This document shows positions 2,578 through 39,180 of a stretch of 44,517 nucleotides of DNA, piece by piece (the stretch's first letter is position 1; the number at the start of each line of letters is the position of its first letter). Below the pieces are notes generated by a model, which worked only from the letters and a program-made list of their open reading frames with translations, did no database searches and was not told the DNA's origin. Source of the DNA: Escherichia phage ST20; sequence record MF153391.1; one strand, written 5' to 3'. A program made the translations under genes and the position numbers.

Positions 2578-3075
2578 TCAACCTTTCACCGCGCGACCGA
2601 TAGCCTCAGCCTCCTGCCACGGTTTACCGTCGAACAGGGCGAGACGACCTGCTGTGCGGCGACGCAGGCCTAGTAACGGTTTGCCGTTCTGGTAGACAAA
2701 CTGGCCCATAATCCGACGACACTCCGCTACATTTCCCAGGCGCACCGCATCATCGAAGTCGGCCAGCCGGTTATCTTTCTCTATAACCCCTGTACCCACG
2801 TTGAAACAAAGGTCACAAATTGCGTCGAACTGCGCTTGATTGAATATCGAGTGTACTAATTCGTCGGCTTTCCTGACGGCCTTAGCCATATCACGATTCA
2901 GTAACAGGAGGCCTTCCCCCGGCGTGATGGTCTTACCTGGCGTTACGTCCGGACCGTAGTGACCGTACCCAATAGTCAGGTACTTCTCGTTTGGTGTAGC
3001 ACGATACGCAGTTCCACGGAACCCCTCAAACGCGGCGGTAAAATGCAATCCATTATCTGAAATGTTTCGAGACAC
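2578..3075 (-). CDS. Endolysin, glycoside hydrolase family 24 (T4-lysozyme-like)
   Basis: ORF track 2578..3126; GH24-like segments AAFEGFRGTAY and TIGYGH; GTG at 3075 preceded by GGAGGA, giving N-terminus (M)SRNISDNGLHF. Confidence 0.8.
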   Translation of the reverse strand: MSRNISDNGLHFTAAFEGFRGTAYRATPNEKYLTIGYGHYGPDVTPGKTITPGEGLLLLNRDMAKAVRKADELVHSIFNQAQFDAICDLCFNVGTGVIEKDNRLADFDDAVRLGNVAECRRIMGQFVYQNGKPLLGLRRRTAGRLALFDGKPWQEAEAIGRAVKG

Positions 3076-3325
3076 GCTTATGTCCTCCGTATGACAGCCA
3101 CGCCTGACGAATCTGACGCAGCGCAACTAATGTGATTAATGTCTCAGGCAGCGTCGGTGACATGCTGCCCTGCAACAGGTGGATACATCCGGCAGCGCAG
3201 ACGATAGCAGTCAGGATATAGAGCACCCTACCAAATAGCCCGTCGTCAACGCTGGGGTGATATACATTAAACAGCGATGTGCCTCCGATTGCCAGCATAC
3301 CGCCGAACCAGAATAGCTCATTCAT
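3053..3325 (-). CDS. Putative holin or antiholin-like small membrane protein
   Basis: Internal ATG of ORF 3053..3418; about 90 aa with two hydrophobic segments; overlaps the endolysin start and the upstream holin stop. Confidence 0.5.
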   Translation of the reverse strand: MNELFWFGGMLAIGGTSLFNVYHPSVDDGLFGRVLYILTAIVCAAGCIHLLQGSMSPTLPETLITLVALRQIRQAWLSYGGHKRVSKHFR

Positions 3326-3626
3326 CCGGGCCTCCTCGACGTGCGATGTATCCTCCGGCAACGATGCCAGAAAGGCGGGAATATATAGGCATCCAGAGAA
3401 TAGCGATGATGAATCCAAGGCCAGCTATCTCGCGCTCCCCGGTAATACCGAACCATTGAGCGGCAAGAGGCGCGCCAAATACGGCGCAAGTGAAGCCAGT
3501 TGCAATAAAGCAGAAGCCATCGATGGGGCCAGAAATAACGGACTTATGTTGTCGTAGTCCGATTACCCCACCAGCTAGTGCGGCAGCGAGAAGCCACCCC
3601 GTTACTGTTTCAGTAAATTTATCCAA
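3318..3626 (-). CDS. Putative holin (multi-pass membrane protein)
   Basis: ORF track; three hydrophobic segments; TTG start at 3626 with GGAGGA 6 nt upstream; immediately upstream of endolysin. Confidence 0.5.
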   Translation of the reverse strand: MDKFTETVTGWLLAAALAGGVIGLRQHKSVISGPIDGFCFIATGFTCAVFGAPLAAQWFGITGEREIAGLGFIIAILWMPIYSRLSGIVAGGYIARRGGPDE

Positions 3627-3632
3627 GATGAA

Positions 3633-3670
3633 TCCTCCAGGTGCGTATTAAGTATGCAGTAACTGGAGGA
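3633..3670 (-). promoter_or_regulatory. Inverted repeat that can sequester the holin Shine-Dalgarno in the mRNA
   Basis: TCCTCCAG at 3633-3640 and CTGGAGGA at 3663-3670; on the minus-strand transcript an upstream UCCUCCAG pairs with the SD CUGGAGGA. Confidence 0.4.
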
Positions 3671-3701
3671 TACCACGGGTAGGAATTATCTTAATAACGG
3701 T

Positions 3702-3995
3702 TTATTTATGACGCCAGATGTACTGTCGTCTCTGTGGTTTAGTCGGAATATCATCATACCCCAGCGATTTCCAGTAATTGAATAACCGATTAGCGATTGC
3801 TGCGCGTTCCTGTGTCTTGAACTCACCGAGATTCACGGCCTTCCCGTTCTGGAATCCACCGGCGCGTATGGCTTTGCGTCTGGCCTGAATCTCTGGGTAC
3901 AGTGCGTTATGGCGGCGCTTGTGTATTCTGGTGTTCGCTCTCGGTGACAGCGGCGCAAGGCCGCTTCGTTTCAGGATGTCAGTTGCAAGGCTCAT
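3702..3995 (-). CDS. Hypothetical basic protein, possibly AP2-like DNA binding
   Basis: ORF track 3702..4052, internal ATG at 3995; segment GKAVNLGEFKTQERAAIANRLF loosely resembles AP2-type domains. Confidence 0.35.
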   Translation of the reverse strand: MSLATDILKRSGLAPLSPRANTRIHKRRHNALYPEIQARRKAIRAGGFQNGKAVNLGEFKTQERAAIANRLFNYWKSLGYDDIPTKPQRRQYIWRHK

Positions 3996-5138: not shown

Positions 5139-5169
5139 CTTCAATCTCTCCTCTCGTTCGTGTAAATGA

Positions 5170-5198
5170 ATAGTAGTCTATTCTATCTTAGCGTGCAA
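5170..5198 (-). promoter_or_regulatory. Promoter TTGCAC-17-TACTAT with palindrome GAATAG-TAGT-CTATTC
   Basis: Reverse complement reads TTGCAC, 17-nt spacer, TACTAT; inverted repeat at 5168-5183. Confidence 0.5.
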
Positions 5199-6470: not shown

Positions 6471-6503
6471 AACCACACTCCTCTGTCTCGTTTCGATAAG
6501 TGA

Positions 6504-6532
6504 ATAGTATCCTATTATGTTGGGGTGTGCAA
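6504..6532 (-). promoter_or_regulatory. Promoter TTGCAC-17-TACTAT with inverted repeat GAATAG-TATC-CTATTA
   Basis: Reverse complement reads TTGCAC ACCCCAACATAATAGGA TACTAT, near-identical to the promoters at 5170-5198 and 29313-29341. Confidence 0.5.
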
Positions 6533-6726: not shown

Positions 6727-6858
6727 GTGGCCTTCCGGACGCGTCAGCGAAACTACACTCAGGGCTAATGCCCCGCTCCGTTTCCTGCCGTGACACGGTC
6801 GCTTGTTCATACTTCACAAGCTCAGGTGGAGCTTAGCACATTTTTAGTGAAAAGTCAA
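6727..6858 (+). repeat. Structured non-coding element, copy 1 (about 130 bp); possible small RNA ending in a terminator-like hairpin
   Basis: Near-identical to 38987-39120; hairpins GGGC-TAAT-GCCC (6762-6773), CCGTG-A-CACGG (6788-6798), AAGCTC-AGGTG-GAGCTT (6818-6834), then TTTTT at 6841-6845. Confidence 0.6.
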
Positions 6859-6906
6859 TACCTGTAGCATCTTTTGTATCTTAGTAACTTTGTTGTTGCT
6901 TTTTGC

Positions 6907-10403: not shown

Positions 10404-10440
10404 TGTGAATAGTACCATATTAATTATTTTAGAAAAGCCC
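10404..10440 (-). promoter_or_regulatory. Putative promoter of the XRE regulator gene (shares the TACTATTCA element, weak -35)
   Basis: Reverse complement contains TACTATTCACA as in the TTGCAC-type promoters; partial inverted repeat GAATAG-TACC-ATATTA. Confidence 0.3.
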
Positions 10441-10441
10441 A

Positions 10442-10471
10442 TTGACAACATGAATAGTTAGCTATTATAGT
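10442..10471 (+). promoter_or_regulatory. Rightward promoter TTGACA-(17/18)-TATAGT with inverted repeat AATAG-TTAG-CTATT
   Basis: 22-bp core TGAATAGTTAGCTATTATAGTT identical to 13153-13174. Confidence 0.55.
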
Positions 10472-13144: not shown

Positions 13145-13173
13145 TTGACACCTGAATAGTTAGCTATTATAGT
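13145..13173 (+). promoter_or_regulatory. Rightward promoter TTGACA-17-TATAGT with inverted repeat AATAG-TTAG-CTATT
   Basis: Direct reading; same core as 10442-10471. Confidence 0.55.
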
Positions 13174-22233: not shown

Positions 22234-24792
22234 TTAATTAAAACCATTGCTGAATCCGTCGGAGAAACCGCTGCCGTATGGCGCGACGCCGTCGTATTTA
22301 TAGAATCCGTCGTCATAGTTGTAGCCAGTAATCTTGACCGTGCGGTCGTCGCCAGGGTCGATTGAAGAAACAACTATCTTCTGAGCATTATGCCTTGCTT
22401 CGTTGCCGAATGAAAACTCAGTTTTTAGCGCACTATTCCCCGTGTATATTGCCTCCTCCGGAGCGGAGAGCATAATCACCTCGCGGTCGTGGCTTCCTTT
22501 GATAACAGAGATACTTTGCACCGAGCCATCGCGCTTCTTGAGGATGATGGAGTGGTCATCGCCCGGGGTAAACGTAACAGGCTGCGACAGCGTCAGCGTA
22601 AGCCCATTAACGGCAACAACATAGCCGTCCTGTGGCGCGATGCGTGAACCTTTAACTACGCTGATTACCCCACCGGGCGTAGCGAGCGCACCCTCTTCCG
22701 TAGCTTCGAACTCTACGACAACTTTACTTAACGCGTTGCGCTGATAGCGACGCCACGCCAGCCAGTACGCCTGCTGATAGTTACGAACGCCCTTCGATTC
22801 GTATTCCTCAGTGTTTGCGCCGAGTTCTTCCGGGATATAAATCGTTTCCTGTACGTTCGTATCCGGGTCGATGTACGAGAACGACAGGCTATCGTAGGTT
22901 GTCGAATCGTTGAACGTGCGCGTCCATTTCTCCGTACCTGTCGTCTTACTGCGGTGGGTGAACACCATTTCAGGCCCCGCGACAGGACGGTCAAAGCGCA
23001 ACATAATATCAGCGCCTTTACGGTACGCAGTACAGAACACGGCTTCCGCTATGGTCTGGACAATATCCTGCATCGTGGTGTCGTAATCGTCGAACGTGTA
23101 GCAGAACTGACCTGCTAACTCACTTCCGAAATAGGACTCAATCTCTTCCTGCACAGCAAGTAACTTATCCATGTTTGCCGTTGTCAGTTCCAGATTGCCT
23201 ACTGCGGGGTCACGTGCCAGTCTGATTAGCGACTGCACCGCCTGTGTATTAGGTGCCATTACCGTATCGAATACGCCATTACCGAGGTATTTGTAGCACA
23301 TCTCGGTTGCAATCATGCGCAGTTCCGGGTTGTCGACACTGGCTGCACGCGGTGTCTGTTTACGGGCGCAATGTACGGTAGTTCTGTTGCCGTAATGTGG
23401 GGTTGTGTCCAGAGACTGCCCGTACAGGTTAATGAACGTTATCTCGTCACTTACCGTACCGTCGTAGTCTTTATCGAAATTCGTTATACGGCGCATACGG
23501 GCACGGAACCGAGACGCGGTCGGTAACTGCCCGTAGATAGACGTACCGACGTAATCCGTGCTATTACCAGTAATTGTAGCCCGTACCGTGTAAATGTCGC
23601 TCAAAGGGTTACGCTGAGAGTCAATCGTCTGGTACTGGAGTTCTACCGTTACGCTGGCGCGGTTATATCCACCGTCGTATTTGTAGAGGCCGTTTTGCCC
23701 TGCAACGTTAACTAGCACCCGGTCAACTTCTCCGCGCACCATGTAGTACCAGTCCGAAAGCGACGGCCCATAAGTGTCCTTAGGCCCGATAAACGTGATT
23801 GATTGCTCGGTCAGGTCGTAGGTGGTGCTCCCGAGGTTAGGCCATTGGTTAGTACCACCTGTAGCTATTCTCACCTCAAAATCGTCCACGTAAAGCACTT
23901 CAAACTCCCCATCTAAAACGGCAACGTCCTTAACCCAAAATTCAGTTAAGACCGCAATGTCTCCGACATTAAGAAATTCGGTAAAGGCGGAATCCCCGGA
24001 GCTGTCATATATGTAGCCTATTTTAGTAGACGAGTCGTAACGAACTCTCCCGTCAGCGCTCGGGTTAGCTCCGATGTCGTTGGGTGCTTTCAGTACAATA
24101 CCGTCAACATCGTCGTTGGAGTATGTCACATAGAGTTTCTGGTCAATGACGTCGCCGATTTGTAGTTGCGGTGAAGCGGTGTTGTTCGGCGAAGTATACG
24201 GCGCATACACGGCAACAGAGGAACCTGTGATATCACTTATCAGGGTGTCACCTTCCGTGACGCCATCAGCCTCGATATGCAGATGCCCGCGCCCTGCGTC
24301 ATAGTACGAATACTCCAGCAAAGCACCAGTGGAGTTGAATGCCTTGTACGTCTGCATCAGGTCATTAGGGATTGTCTGCACAGTCCCGCAGATGTCATAA
24401 GAGCGCTCGTAAGGGCGCGGCTTGTTGGAGCGGTCTGTTAGGCTGTTATTCGGGGACGTTGTCTGGTTGTTAGTCGCCGTGTAGTTGGCGTTTGCGGACA
24501 TGTTCAGCCCAAATAACTTAGCGATTGGCTTAAGGATAAAACCGAACACCTTACTAACGGCACCAAGCGCCCCGCTACCCGCGCCCTCAATAATGTGGTA
24601 CACGGCGTCTTCGTCTTTAAGCGCGTCGAAGTCGTCAGTTACGTCGGTATCGTCGCCAATCTCGCCGAGGTAGACGCGCACAGGCACGCCGTCTGGGATA
24701 CGGTTAACGACAAACTCCATCGGCATCCCGACGTGTTTTGTACGGTCGAAAGCGCCGTCGGCGTTTCGCGTGTAGTGCAGGATTATCGCCAA
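22234..24792 (-). CDS. Tail tip protein (J-like central fibre)
   Basis: ORF track 852 aa; position downstream of the distal tail genes. Confidence 0.5.
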   Translation of the reverse strand: MAIILHYTRNADGAFDRTKHVGMPMEFVVNRIPDGVPVRVYLGEIGDDTDVTDDFDALKDEDAVYHIIEGAGSGALGAVSKVFGFILKPIAKLFGLNMSANANYTATNNQTTSPNNSLTDRSNKPRPYERSYDICGTVQTIPNDLMQTYKAFNSTGALLEYSYYDAGRGHLHIEADGVTEGDTLISDITGSSVAVYAPYTSPNNTASPQLQIGDVIDQKLYVTYSNDDVDGIVLKAPNDIGANPSADGRVRYDSSTKIGYIYDSSGDSAFTEFLNVGDIAVLTEFWVKDVAVLDGEFEVLYVDDFEVRIATGGTNQWPNLGSTTYDLTEQSITFIGPKDTYGPSLSDWYYMVRGEVDRVLVNVAGQNGLYKYDGGYNRASVTVELQYQTIDSQRNPLSDIYTVRATITGNSTDYVGTSIYGQLPTASRFRARMRRITNFDKDYDGTVSDEITFINLYGQSLDTTPHYGNRTTVHCARKQTPRAASVDNPELRMIATEMCYKYLGNGVFDTVMAPNTQAVQSLIRLARDPAVGNLELTTANMDKLLAVQEEIESYFGSELAGQFCYTFDDYDTTMQDIVQTIAEAVFCTAYRKGADIMLRFDRPVAGPEMVFTHRSKTTGTEKWTRTFNDSTTYDSLSFSYIDPDTNVQETIYIPEELGANTEEYESKGVRNYQQAYWLAWRRYQRNALSKVVVEFEATEEGALATPGGVISVVKGSRIAPQDGYVVAVNGLTLTLSQPVTFTPGDDHSIILKKRDGSVQSISVIKGSHDREVIMLSAPEEAIYTGNSALKTEFSFGNEARHNAQKIVVSSIDPGDDRTVKITGYNYDDGFYKYDGVAPYGSGFSDGFSNGFN

Positions 24793-25148: not shown

Positions 25149-25660
25149 GTGGTCAACAGGCCGCGCAATAACGGTATCTCTTTAGGTGTCATCAGTATAC
25201 CAGTGCTTCGTTGGTTCAGCATAGGTGTACCAACATCTGCAGAGAACTCGCCTTTCTCCTGGTTGATTGCCTGCAACTCGTACACGACGGGGCCGTCGGC
25301 CGGATAAGACAGGTCGGTGCTGACGTAACGGCGGAAGACGAACTTCGGCAGCTCCGTATTGCTCATCGGAATTTTATCCATCTCATCATCCAGTTGATTG
25401 AGAATATCCGGTAAAGTAAATGTTGTCGTCTGGTCCATGTCGTTATTGTTAGCCGCCCCCGACGCCTCCATCGGGGTGGGTTCGAACGTGATTGTTTCGC
25501 CCGTCTCCAGTGTTGCCGTGAGTTCCTGTAGCCCGCGCACAAGATAATACGTCTTCGATAGCAACGGGTGGCTTATTTGCAACGTGATGTAGTCCATCTC
25601 GCCGTCGGGATTTGAGGCCAGCTTACGGCGATAGGCTGCTTCTACTGATTCCTGACTCAT
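25145..25660 (-). CDS. Minor tail protein (L-like)
   Basis: ORF track 25145..25675; ATG at 25660 in ATGA overlap with the upstream stop. Confidence 0.4.
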   Translation of the reverse strand: MSQESVEAAYRRKLASNPDGEMDYITLQISHPLLSKTYYLVRGLQELTATLETGETITFEPTPMEASGAANNNDMDQTTTFTLPDILNQLDDEMDKIPMSNTELPKFVFRRYVSTDLSYPADGPVVYELQAINQEKGEFSADVGTPMLNQRSTGILMTPKEIPLLRGLLTT

Positions 25661-26157
25661 TGCATAGGGTCCCAAATTCGTGGAAACGTTGATTGCGCAG
25701 TTCCGTAGGCTTTAAGGAAACATCCCAGCCCGTCGCCATAGCAACCATACAAATCTGGCAGATTATTAATCAGGCACTGGTTCTCAAGGTCCTGGAACGG
25801 TGATTTCTCCGCGGTTGCCGTGAAAGTAATCGTCCAGTTAATCCCGTCTTCGGTGGACTCGGCGATGGTGGACGTGATGGTGACCTGATAATCCTCTATA
25901 CCCATGCCGAAGTCGTGCGCCATCCAGAAACTTGACGCACCACCATCGACTTTCTCAAGGAACGACAGAAACGCCTGCCGCCCCAGCGCGGAGGTAATCA
26001 GGGTTACACTTATTGGGAACACGTCGTAATACGTGTCGCGGCCCTGACGCGCCCCGCCACCAGCTAAATCGACACTCCAGACGTTGTTGCGTCTGGTCAT
26101 TGAGTAGCCTTTTGATACCACCGGCTTAAGGCTACGTGGAAAGTATAAGTCGCTCAT
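25657..26157 (-). CDS. Minor tail protein (M-like)
   Basis: ORF track; immediately downstream of the tape measure gene. Confidence 0.4.
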   Translation of the reverse strand: MSDLYFPRSLKPVVSKGYSMTRRNNVWSVDLAGGGARQGRDTYYDVFPISVTLITSALGRQAFLSFLEKVDGGASSFWMAHDFGMGIEDYQVTITSTIAESTEDGINWTITFTATAEKSPFQDLENQCLINNLPDLYGCYGDGLGCFLKAYGTAQSTFPRIWDPMQ

Positions 26158-29312: not shown

Positions 29313-29341
29313 TTGCACACCCCAATATAATAGGGTACTAT
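29313..29341 (+). promoter_or_regulatory. Rightward promoter TTGCAC-17-TACTAT with inverted repeat TAATAG-GGTA-CTATTC, driving the accessory cassette
   Basis: Direct reading; near-identical to the leftward promoters at 5170-5198 and 6504-6532. Confidence 0.55.
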
Positions 29342-29371
29342 TCACCTACACCAACAATGAAGGAGTTTAAA

Positions 29372-33567: not shown

Positions 33568-33962
33568 TATTTCACCTTGTTGGCTTCTTCGTTAATGAGT
33601 TGCTGGAAGCGAGACACATTAGTCCTGACAACCCCGGCTGGCGCCTGTTGTGACCAACCATACTCCAGCCGTTGTGCATACGGCAGATTATTTGTCAACG
33701 TGAACTCGCGCCAGTCGGCGGCTTTCAGCACGAAACTTGTAGCGTTTCCGATTGCTATGTTTCCTGATTTATCTGTAGCATCCGTAACCCCTGAAGCAGG
33801 ATTACCGCCAGACGCCATCCAGTTCATACGAAACCGACCAGTATCTACCGGACTCGCCTTTATGATAGCGGAAAACAGCTTGATAGACACCTGACGCATC
33901 ACCTTCTCAGGGTTCTTCTTCGCCTTTTCTACGAACTTAGAGACATCAAGCGCGAAACTCAT
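33567..33962 (-). CDS. Tail completion protein (HK97 gp10-like)
   Basis: ORF track 131 aa; SPVDTGRFRMNW segment; position. Confidence 0.45.
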   Translation of the reverse strand: MSFALDVSKFVEKAKKNPEKVMRQVSIKLFSAIIKASPVDTGRFRMNWMASGGNPASGVTDATDKSGNIAIGNATSFVLKAADWREFTLTNNLPYAQRLEYGWSQQAPAGVVRTNVSRFQQLINEEANKVK

Positions 33963-34318
33963 TTTCTTACCTGAATAAAGTAGGCCACGATATCATCGTT
34001 AACCATCTTCTTCTCGATAGCTACGACAGACCATTGCTCGCCACCGAATTGCACCTTGTCTTCCATCTTCGGAACGACACCGCAATCCGCTTTAACAATC
34101 ATGTCGCCCGCCTGAATCGTCGTACCGTTTACCAGTCCCGCGTTTACCGGAACCGGAACGGCCTTCAACGGCAGCACTTCATCCGTGGACCATACGTACT
34201 CGCCCAGAACTTCATCCCACACTTTCGAGCCAGCGCGAATCAGAGATACCGTGCTACCGAATTTGGTTAGCAGGCGCGTACCCACGCCTTGCATACGTTT
34301 ACTGAAAGCTGTGCCCAT
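33959..34318 (-). CDS. Head closure / head-tail joining protein
   Basis: ORF track 33959..34372, internal ATG at 34318. Confidence 0.35.
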   Translation of the reverse strand: MGTAFSKRMQGVGTRLLTKFGSTVSLIRAGSKVWDEVLGEYVWSTDEVLPLKAVPVPVNAGLVNGTTIQAGDMIVKADCGVVPKMEDKVQFGGEQWSVVAIEKKMVNDDIVAYFIQVRK

Positions 34319-38986: not shown

Positions 38987-39120
38987 TGGCCCTTCCGAAC
39001 GCGTCAGCGTAACTACACTCAGGACTTACGTCCCGCTCCGTTACCTGCCCGCGCCGCGGTCGCTTGTTCATACTTCACAAGCTCAGGTGGAGCTTATCAT
39101 ATTTTTAGTGAAAAGTCAAC
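38987..39120 (+). repeat. Structured non-coding element, copy 2 (about 130 bp)
   Basis: Near-identical to 6727-6858; hairpins GGAC-TTAC-GTCC (39022-39033) and CCGCG-C-CGCGG (39049-39059) carry compensatory changes relative to copy 1. Confidence 0.6.
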
Positions 39121-39180
39121 TATTCGAATAGTTTATTCCAACATTTACAATTTAGAGGAATAACTGGAATAATCACAGAC

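Follow-up and report, generated by a model that had tools for sequence, protein, structure and literature searches.

The window analysed here, i.e., the whole stretch of 44,517 nucleotides from Escherichia phage ST20 (MF153391.1), carries a lysis cassette on its minus strand, which also holds every other local gene around the leader of the cassette. The first gene of the cassette (3318..3626, minus strand) encodes a protein of 102 amino acids that matches the PHROG holin family phrog_2359 (E = 2e-29), and the designation "holin candidate" in the first-pass annotation was therefore reasonable; in relatives, the same protein is annotated as class II holin-like or as antiholin/holin. Its start codon is the TTG at 3624..3626, which is the earliest start codon in the open reading frame, aligns with the ATG of homologues beginning with MDK, and is annotated as the start in phage Schulenburg, together with a ribosome-binding site at the same place as here. 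The coding sequence begins with TTG GAT AAA TTT ACT GAA and has one start codon, since no second in-frame ATG, GTG, or TTG occurs in the first codons. It is followed on the minus strand by a second holin-like gene (3053..3325; PHROG match to phrog_2508) and by an endolysin gene (PF00959, E = 6e-24), the first-start open reading frame of which spans 2578..3126 with a TTG at 3126 and a preferred GTG start at 3075. The stop of the first holin gene and the start of the second overlap by 8 nt in ATGAATGA (3318-3325, minus strand), with GAGGAGG just before, an arrangement that suggests translational coupling of the two membrane proteins. Upstream of the holin gene lies a co-oriented gene (3702..3995, minus strand; phrog_9632, function not assigned) that ends with a TAA at 3704..3702.

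The 2-kb region around the leader has matches in 233 phage records; those that cover its full length come from siphophages of E. coli in the genus Kagunavirus (Guernseyvirinae). The family of the holin comprises just 29 clusters, and a search of 185,579 bacterial and archaeal genomes found no relatives, which leaves no prophage copies for comparison. Scans of metagenomes and IMG/VR returned mainly near-identical Kagunavirus and Dhillonvirus copies.

The leader RNA reads ...CCGUGG-U-AUCCUCCAG-UUACUGCAUACUUAAUACGCAC-CUGGAGGAU-UCAUC-UUG. The 5' arm AUCCUCCAG (3671..3663, minus strand), an anti-Shine-Dalgarno sequence, is perfectly complementary over 9 bp to the 3' arm CUGGAGGAU (3640..3632), which contains the Shine-Dalgarno sequence GGAGGA (3638..3633) set apart from the TTG (3626..3624) by the 6-nt spacer UUCAUC. 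Between the arms lies the 22-nt loop UUACUGCAUACUUAAUACGCAC (3641..3662), which shows weak internal UGC/GCA pairing in the fold. The first-pass annotation had described a TTG start with GGAGGA 6 nt upstream and an exactly complementary arm about 30 nt further upstream, both of which can be read directly from the sequence, as the starts of the arms are 30-31 nt apart; the stem, given there as 8 bp, is indeed a perfect complement and is one base pair longer. The inverted repeat was detected by a dedicated scan and by folding, and was missed by a general repeat finder. In RNAfold the hairpin is both the minimum free energy (MFE) and the centroid structure, with all bases of GGAGGA paired. A 56-nt segment folds with -16.8 kcal/mol (z = -2.63; 3 of 200 shuffled sequences were equally good), and a 106-nt segment with -23 kcal/mol (z = -2.77). 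No match was obtained in a search of Rfam 15 with positions 3400..3900 on both strands at E values up to 1.

The energy needed to open the Shine-Dalgarno zone is higher at the holin gene (12.5 kcal/mol) than at any other of 74 crude gene calls (median 3.8, standard deviation 2.5), by a modest margin over the runners-up at 10.6, 9.9, and 9.7 kcal/mol. These belong to the minus-strand genes at 33959..34318, 22234..24720, and 3702..3995, respectively, the last of which is the gene directly upstream of the holin gene. With arms of 8 bp or more and loops of 3-30 nt, perfect inverted repeats are not rare: the window contains 28, compared with 15.2 +/- 3.4 in Markov simulations, and the 3' arm of such a repeat covers the Shine-Dalgarno zone in 2 of the 74 gene calls. 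The other gene of this kind is 25657..26100 (minus strand), with a perfect 8-bp repeat at 26104-26135, a 16-nt loop, and an opening energy of 6.5 kcal/mol. Taken alone, these single-genome statistics are suggestive and not decisive.

A further small hairpin, UUACUG-AAA-CAGUAA, is located just inside the holin coding region at codons 4-9 (3597-3616, minus strand). It recalls the intragenic stem-loop of lambda S, and its pairs include freely varying third-codon positions. Its 3' half could instead pair with GUUACUG in the leader loop. The alternative pairing of CCAGUUACUG with codons 7-9 was set aside, as the third-codon positions of the partner vary regardless of pairing.

To compare leaders within Kagunavirus, sequences were collected from IMG/VR, metagenomes, and GenBank. 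In GenBank, the leader is present in 120 records, always with an identity of at least 87%. In 58 distinct leader-plus-holin sequences, the 45 nt that precede the start codon have a nucleotide diversity of 0.012, whereas third and second codon positions of the holin gene have 0.32 and 0.028, respectively; the last ~20 nt, from the 3' arm to the first codons, were fixed by the anchoring pattern and carry no weight in the leader figure. The leader is thus probably under purifying selection, which we count as support for the reading preferred below. Eight of the nine stem pairs never vary within the genus, and no co-variation was found. Because the leader hardly varies, counting covariation in Kagunavirus is uninformative. 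The 5' arm is invariant in 53 distinct leaders except for one A-to-G change (L039/L126), which gives a G.U pair. Two leaders (L025 and L034) carry changes that lengthen the stem, and a singleton (L131) has an A.C mismatch in it. All arm variants that are common retain pairing by way of wobble.

Conservation extends to the whole 75-nt leader: neither the loop nor the segment upstream of the helix varies more than the stem does. The leader is also unchanged where a gene for an HslV-like protease replaces the upstream gene. A mosaic boundary falls exactly at the start of the conserved leader (3702-3711; seen in L003, L005, L010, and others, ~71-78 nt upstream of the holin start): upstream of AAAC(CGT/AAC)TATTA lies either the phrog_9632 gene or the HslV-like protease gene, with the same leader following. 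Conservation of the entire 75 nt exceeds the needs of a simple hairpin and would fit a DNA operator for a dimeric regulator at a lysis promoter, or a fortuitous complementarity in which only a promoter and a ribosome-binding site are conserved. Both possibilities are very improbable in light of the arm changes in L039 and in a diverged contig described next, which keep pairing only through G.U and so break the symmetry of the DNA.

The diverged contig is L152 (unclassified), whose holin is 69% identical. It has the same 3' arm, the 5' arm AUCCUCUGG, an unrelated 9-nt loop in place of the near-invariant Kagunavirus loop, and the tail UUUAUUUUG. Its 5' arm differs by two transitions, both of which yield G.U pairs and keep the helix; the pairing therefore survives only at the RNA level. 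Equivalent hairpins were found beyond this contig. Between-group alignments of the hairpins are structural and were made by eye, without statistical scoring. Dhillonvirus leaders (holins 47-50% identical) read GUCCCAGUGAG-6 nt-CUUACUGGGAC-U7-AUG, and the variant L098 (49% identical over the aligned part) is Dhillonvirus-like with an additional, compensated C/G insertion. In the KLB16-like group (28-37% identical), the arms are UCCCCGGA..UUCGGGGA-U7, AUCCCCAAA..UUUGGGGAU, and AACCCCGU..ACGGGGUU, with compensatory differences among them. Such differences within groups thus separate L098 from Dhillonvirus and L043 from L153 and L154. The Jerseyvirus Shelanagig, whose protein is a remote homologue (24% identity, E = 4e-8), has AAUCUCCGAAGGU-6 nt-ACUUUCGGAGAUU-UUUUAUU-GUG before the first gene of its lysis cassette, where its depositors annotated a terminator with a ribosome-binding site inside. 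In the Cornell-like contigs (L168-L172), whose proteins share 63-74% identity with that of Jerseyvirus, a helix covers GGAG and there is no U-rich tail.

In every group examined the hairpin ends 5-11 nt before the start codon, with its G-rich 3' arm at the Shine-Dalgarno position. Although the distance between the arms differs from group to group (6 to 22 nt), the hairpin keeps its position with respect to the start codon; this also speaks against a DNA operator or chance complementarity, as do the short loops and U-tails of the relatives, which are typical of RNA elements. The existence and conservation of a hairpin that masks the holin Shine-Dalgarno sequence are thereby confirmed, and the structural part of the earlier proposal, i.e., an anti-Shine-Dalgarno helix that occludes the ribosome-binding site, is borne out by the MFE and centroid folds, by conservation, and by the equivalents in other genera. 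The comparison further supports the view that the helix is a selected RNA-level feature.

Only some lineages have the U-run. A scanning tool reported terminator-like hairpins in Dhillonvirus, the KLB16-like group, L152, and Jerseyvirus, and the hairpins of L041, L043, L153, L152, and Jerseyvirus L157 are intrinsic terminators by its criteria. Together with the Shelanagig annotation, these hairpins would suit an attenuator, i.e., a leaky or decayed intrinsic terminator that limits read-through and overlaps the Shine-Dalgarno sequence merely as a by-product of tight packing. We consider this unlikely, because an intrinsic terminator should have a G+C-rich stem, a loop of 3-8 nt, and a U-run directly after the stem, whereas the window hairpin has a 22-nt loop and the tail UUCAUCUU and received no call from the tool, and because the Cornell-like contigs keep the helix over GGAG without a U-tail. 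As both the Cornell-like contigs and the window retain the helix without this tail, the feature common to all groups is the masked Shine-Dalgarno sequence on the G-rich arm.

The 5' arm adjoins a second element. Each of the ten leader types has a sigma-70-like -10 element (TGnTAnnnT, or TTGACC-17/18-TAnnAT) that either borders on the arm or shares bases with it. In the window, it consists of the hexamer TATCCT (3667..3672, minus strand; 4 of 6 consensus bases), the last five bases of which are the first five of the 5' arm, and of a TGn motif (3673..3675, TGG here) in which TG is invariant and n is polymorphic. A weak -35-like hexamer, TTAAGA (3689..3694; 4 of 6, with A or G at position 4), is situated 16 nt from the -10-like hexamer. 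The complete site, TTAAGA-16-TGg-TATCCT (3694..3667), scores 8.9 with an approximate sigma-70 matrix, the target sites having been chosen after inspection. It is the best mRNA-strand site in the leader and ranks 20th of 8016 intergenic positions and 68th of 88,980 overall, far below the strong promoters of the phage at 13-16. The promoter match in the window is accordingly modest. Other placements in the leader, e.g., GATAAT at 3690..3685, scored much lower and were rejected, and the matrix scan gave no convincing candidate for an antisense promoter in the leader. A stricter promoter-scanning tool made no call at the TATCCT site of the window, and two published Kagunavirus genome papers predict neither a promoter nor a terminator at the leader. 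The transcriptome time course of Kagunavirus K1B4 was published as coarse gene classes.

Five of the six hexamer bases also serve the anti-Shine-Dalgarno sequence, and conservation of the hexamer is therefore not independent evidence for a promoter. The TG lies outside the core helix and hence is not required by the hairpin. Guernseyvirinae leaders share the motif TGnTA(A/T)(T/C)CT, and each of the four bases occurs at n: Kagunavirus sequences have G (35) or C (23), Jerseyvirus has T or C, and the Cornell-like contigs have A or C. A fixed TG followed by a free base is the pattern that would be expected of an extended -10 element; in the window, TGNTANNNT has a background rate of one in 1329 positions. 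The Dhillonvirus equivalent is TGaTATAGT. In L041, L098, L043, L153, and L154, which represent three sequence groups, the stem-abutting site ranks first of ~4000 positions on both strands. The scanning tool placed a promoter (TTGACC-17-TACTAT) at 752-780 in the KLB16-like L043, with a terminator directly after it at 781-803, and in L153 a promoter (TTGACC-18-TAACAT) at 938-967 that overlaps a terminator at 966-990. The -35-like spacing in L152 is 15 nt, and the Jerseyvirus site scores only 5.1.

Stronger promoter-like sites elsewhere in the window are associated with two repeated sequences. The 20-nt motif TGAATAGTAnCCTATTATnT, which contains the palindrome AATAG-N4-CTATT, occurs at 5167-5186, 6501-6520, 10406-10425, 10451-10470, and 13153-13172 on the plus strand and at 29325-29344 and 2447-2466 on the minus strand. 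It was called a "phage RNA polymerase promoter" with PHIRE in a Kagunavirus paper (PMC9825357). The copies at 13153-13172 and 10451-10470 overlap the spacer and -10 element of the top sigma-70-like sites of the window (TTGACA-17/18-TATAGT), and in appearance the motif is closer to a promoter of the host type in which the operator of a phage regulator is embedded. The second repeat comprises near-identical ~63-nt copies at ~6775-6895 and 39036-39156 (minus strand) of the form TTGACTTTTCACTAAAAAT(G/A)TG(C/A)TAAGCTCCACCTGAGCTTGTGAAGTATGAACAAGCGACCG, i.e., a strong promoter-like site and its downstream leader duplicated at two distant places in the genome.

If the -10-like element of the leader is used, transcription is predicted to start within 3658..3662, at about 3660 (an A). 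With the start set seven bases past the hexamer, each of the ten leader types would begin its transcript at the end of the 5' arm or close to it, and eight of them on a purine. The predicted transcripts keep at most ~5 bases of the arm, and usually 0-3. Nine leader types were folded in this truncated form, and the Shine-Dalgarno zone opens at 1.6-5.6 kcal/mol, compared with 9-20 kcal/mol in the full-length RNAs; the exception is full-length L152, at 5.1 kcal/mol, whose 120-nt fold does not adopt the hairpin. For the window, an RNA beginning at 3660 lowers the opening energy from 13.0 to 4.2 kcal/mol and has no significant structure (z = -0.24). Promoter-like sites exist upstream, and the scan reported nothing resembling a terminator on the minus strand from 5477 to the holin gene (3627). 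With co-oriented genes upstream and no terminator candidate in this interval, upstream transcripts should enter the holin gene.

The reading that we prefer, with a probability of about one half, is that the leader is a module of the T4 gene e type, which silences transcripts that read through from upstream and permits translation of those that the cassette itself initiates. Transcripts entering from upstream would contain both arms and, as predicted, form a hairpin of 9-13 bp (~-17 kcal/mol) that buries GGAGGA and bars the 30S subunit from the holin Shine-Dalgarno sequence. The DNA encoding the 5' arm would double as the -10 element and discriminator of a weak sigma-70 extended -10 promoter, and a polymerase starting at ~3660 would produce a 34-nt leader that lacks the 5' arm and leaves the Shine-Dalgarno sequence open. 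The 22-nt loop would then be the start of the cassette's own 5' untranslated region, and holin would be made only from the weak promoter of the cassette, with no contribution from the abundant mRNA that arrives from the genes before it. It is the placement of the -10 element, such that the transcript lacks the 5' arm, that points to insulation against read-through. In the relatives (Jerseyvirus, Dhillonvirus, the KLB16-like group, and L152), the U-run after the hairpin should terminate read-through as well, and in the present Kagunavirus leader these terminator features, judging from its loop and tail, would have decayed with occlusion of the Shine-Dalgarno sequence remaining. Use of the window motif as a promoter, the position of its start site, and the arrival of upstream transcription at the leader are all inferred from sequence. 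The insulator-plus-promoter module offers no specific reason why the 22-nt loop should be nearly invariant in the genus.

The first-pass annotation had proposed that the hairpin times or throttles holin translation. Masking of the Shine-Dalgarno sequence, on which that proposal was built, holds; a general throttle is possible and is not the best-supported reading, as a helix of -15 to -17 kcal/mol over a gene with a TTG start would nearly silence the gene instead of tuning it, and in every leader type a promoter-like -10 element is placed such that a transcript begun there would lack the 5' arm. In a constant throttle, there would be no internal promoter, every holin mRNA would carry both arms, and the hairpin and the weak TTG would together keep holin low and lysis late, with breathing of the helix, ribosomes, or helicases allowing a trickle of synthesis. 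The stability and conservation of the hairpin fit such a throttle, as do the weakness of the promoter-like site in the window, L152, and Jerseyvirus and the fact that most of the window hexamer is also anti-Shine-Dalgarno sequence. There is also a precedent in lambda S, in which leader stem-loops over the Shine-Dalgarno sequence tune holin output and lysis time (bioRxiv 10.1101/2025.05.14.654169). On the other hand, a helix of about -17 kcal/mol on a gene that starts with TTG would be expected to cut initiation by orders of magnitude. The general relation of helix stability to translation initiation is reportedly due to de Smit and van Duin. Translational coupling cannot open the helix, since the upstream stop codon lies ~30 nt before the 5' arm (14 nt in the alternative gene context), and coupling from the upstream gene was itself ruled out by distance. 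A throttle also leaves unexplained both the fixed TG with a free base before the hexamer and the top-ranked promoters that abut the hairpins of the relatives. We regard it as the main rival of the insulator-plus-promoter module and as less probable than the latter.

A regulated version, in which the leader is an RNA-level lysis timer (pseudoknotted, bound by a factor, or kinetically switched) whose Shine-Dalgarno sequence opens late in infection, appears improbable. A pseudoknot could be formed by UAUUA(A/G)G (3696..3690) and CUUAAUA in the loop (3652..3646), and the A/G polymorphism remains pairable; in L034, the partner U is changed to C opposite G. This AU-rich pairing of 7 bp is about as frequent as expected by chance, and L152 lacks it. 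Two other candidates were examined and rejected: binding of CsrA to GGA motifs, because the upstream GGA is polymorphic, and processing by RNase III, for which a 9-bp stem is too short.

The amount of holin determines when lysis occurs, and gating of holin translation therefore gates phage fitness and burst size. If the insulator-plus-promoter module is correct, one compact design would be common to Kagunavirus, Jerseyvirus, Dhillonvirus, and their relatives, which include coliphages and Salmonella phages, many of them candidates for therapy. With it, a lysis cassette could stand last in an early or middle transcription unit and not kill the host prematurely, and the module would explain why pipelines annotate a terminator with a ribosome-binding site inside at this spot. 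It would also extend the principle of T4 gene e to phages that rely on host sigma-70, and offer a small, portable insulator part. The principle of a masking hairpin is already known, and none of it is new in principle.

Inhibitory pairing between an anti-Shine-Dalgarno and a Shine-Dalgarno sequence is shared with RNA thermometers and with the MS2 coat/lysis structures. Unlike in those systems, there is no sign here of a ligand, temperature, or coupling trigger, and an RNA thermometer was rejected because a helix of this stability does not melt at 37-42 C. In phage lambda, the terminator tR' follows the promoter pR', so that the transcript of the promoter includes the terminator and needs Q antitermination. 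The leaders of the relatives resemble this arrangement in having a hairpin and U-run directly before the first lysis gene, beside a promoter; they differ in that the -10 element abuts the stem and the transcript should begin past the 5' arm, which implies no antiterminator.

The lambda S (sdi) leader is similar in that a stem-loop directly upstream of the holin gene includes the Shine-Dalgarno sequence and controls ribosome access, and changes in this stem-loop alter lysis timing (bioRxiv 10.1101/2025.05.14.654169). The lambda stem-loop splits initiation between Met1 and Met3, whereas the present gene has a single TTG; with only one start, dual-start control of the lambda S type does not apply. 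The helix is also much more stable than that of lambda S and would act as an on/off block.

The closest likeness is to T4. According to the relevant passage of PMC3014915, which cites McPheeters 1986, long transcripts of T4 gene e, soc, 49, and I-TevI form a hairpin in which the Shine-Dalgarno sequence is inaccessible, and the productive promoter lies inside the DNA encoding the 5' strand of the hairpin, giving an RNA without the inhibitory arm. As in gene e, a lysis gene here lies downstream of co-oriented genes, from which earlier transcription would enter, and the geometry of the candidate -10 elements in the ten leader types matches that of T4. The T4 element is the late promoter TATAAATA, which acts with gp55/gp33; this sequence does not occur in the present leader, where the hexamer is TATCCT with an upstream TG and the candidate is a host sigma-70 promoter of the extended -10 or -35/-10 type. 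Gene e encodes lysozyme, an endolysin, whereas the present gene encodes a holin, and there is no sequence homology between them. The transcription start of gene e has been mapped, while that of Kagunavirus is predicted from sequence alone. In several relatives of this phage, unlike in T4 gene e, the hairpin is also a complete intrinsic terminator. The leader is thus an analogue of T4 gene e in mechanism and not a member of the T4 regulon, from which it differs in promoter type, in the gene controlled, and in phage lineage.
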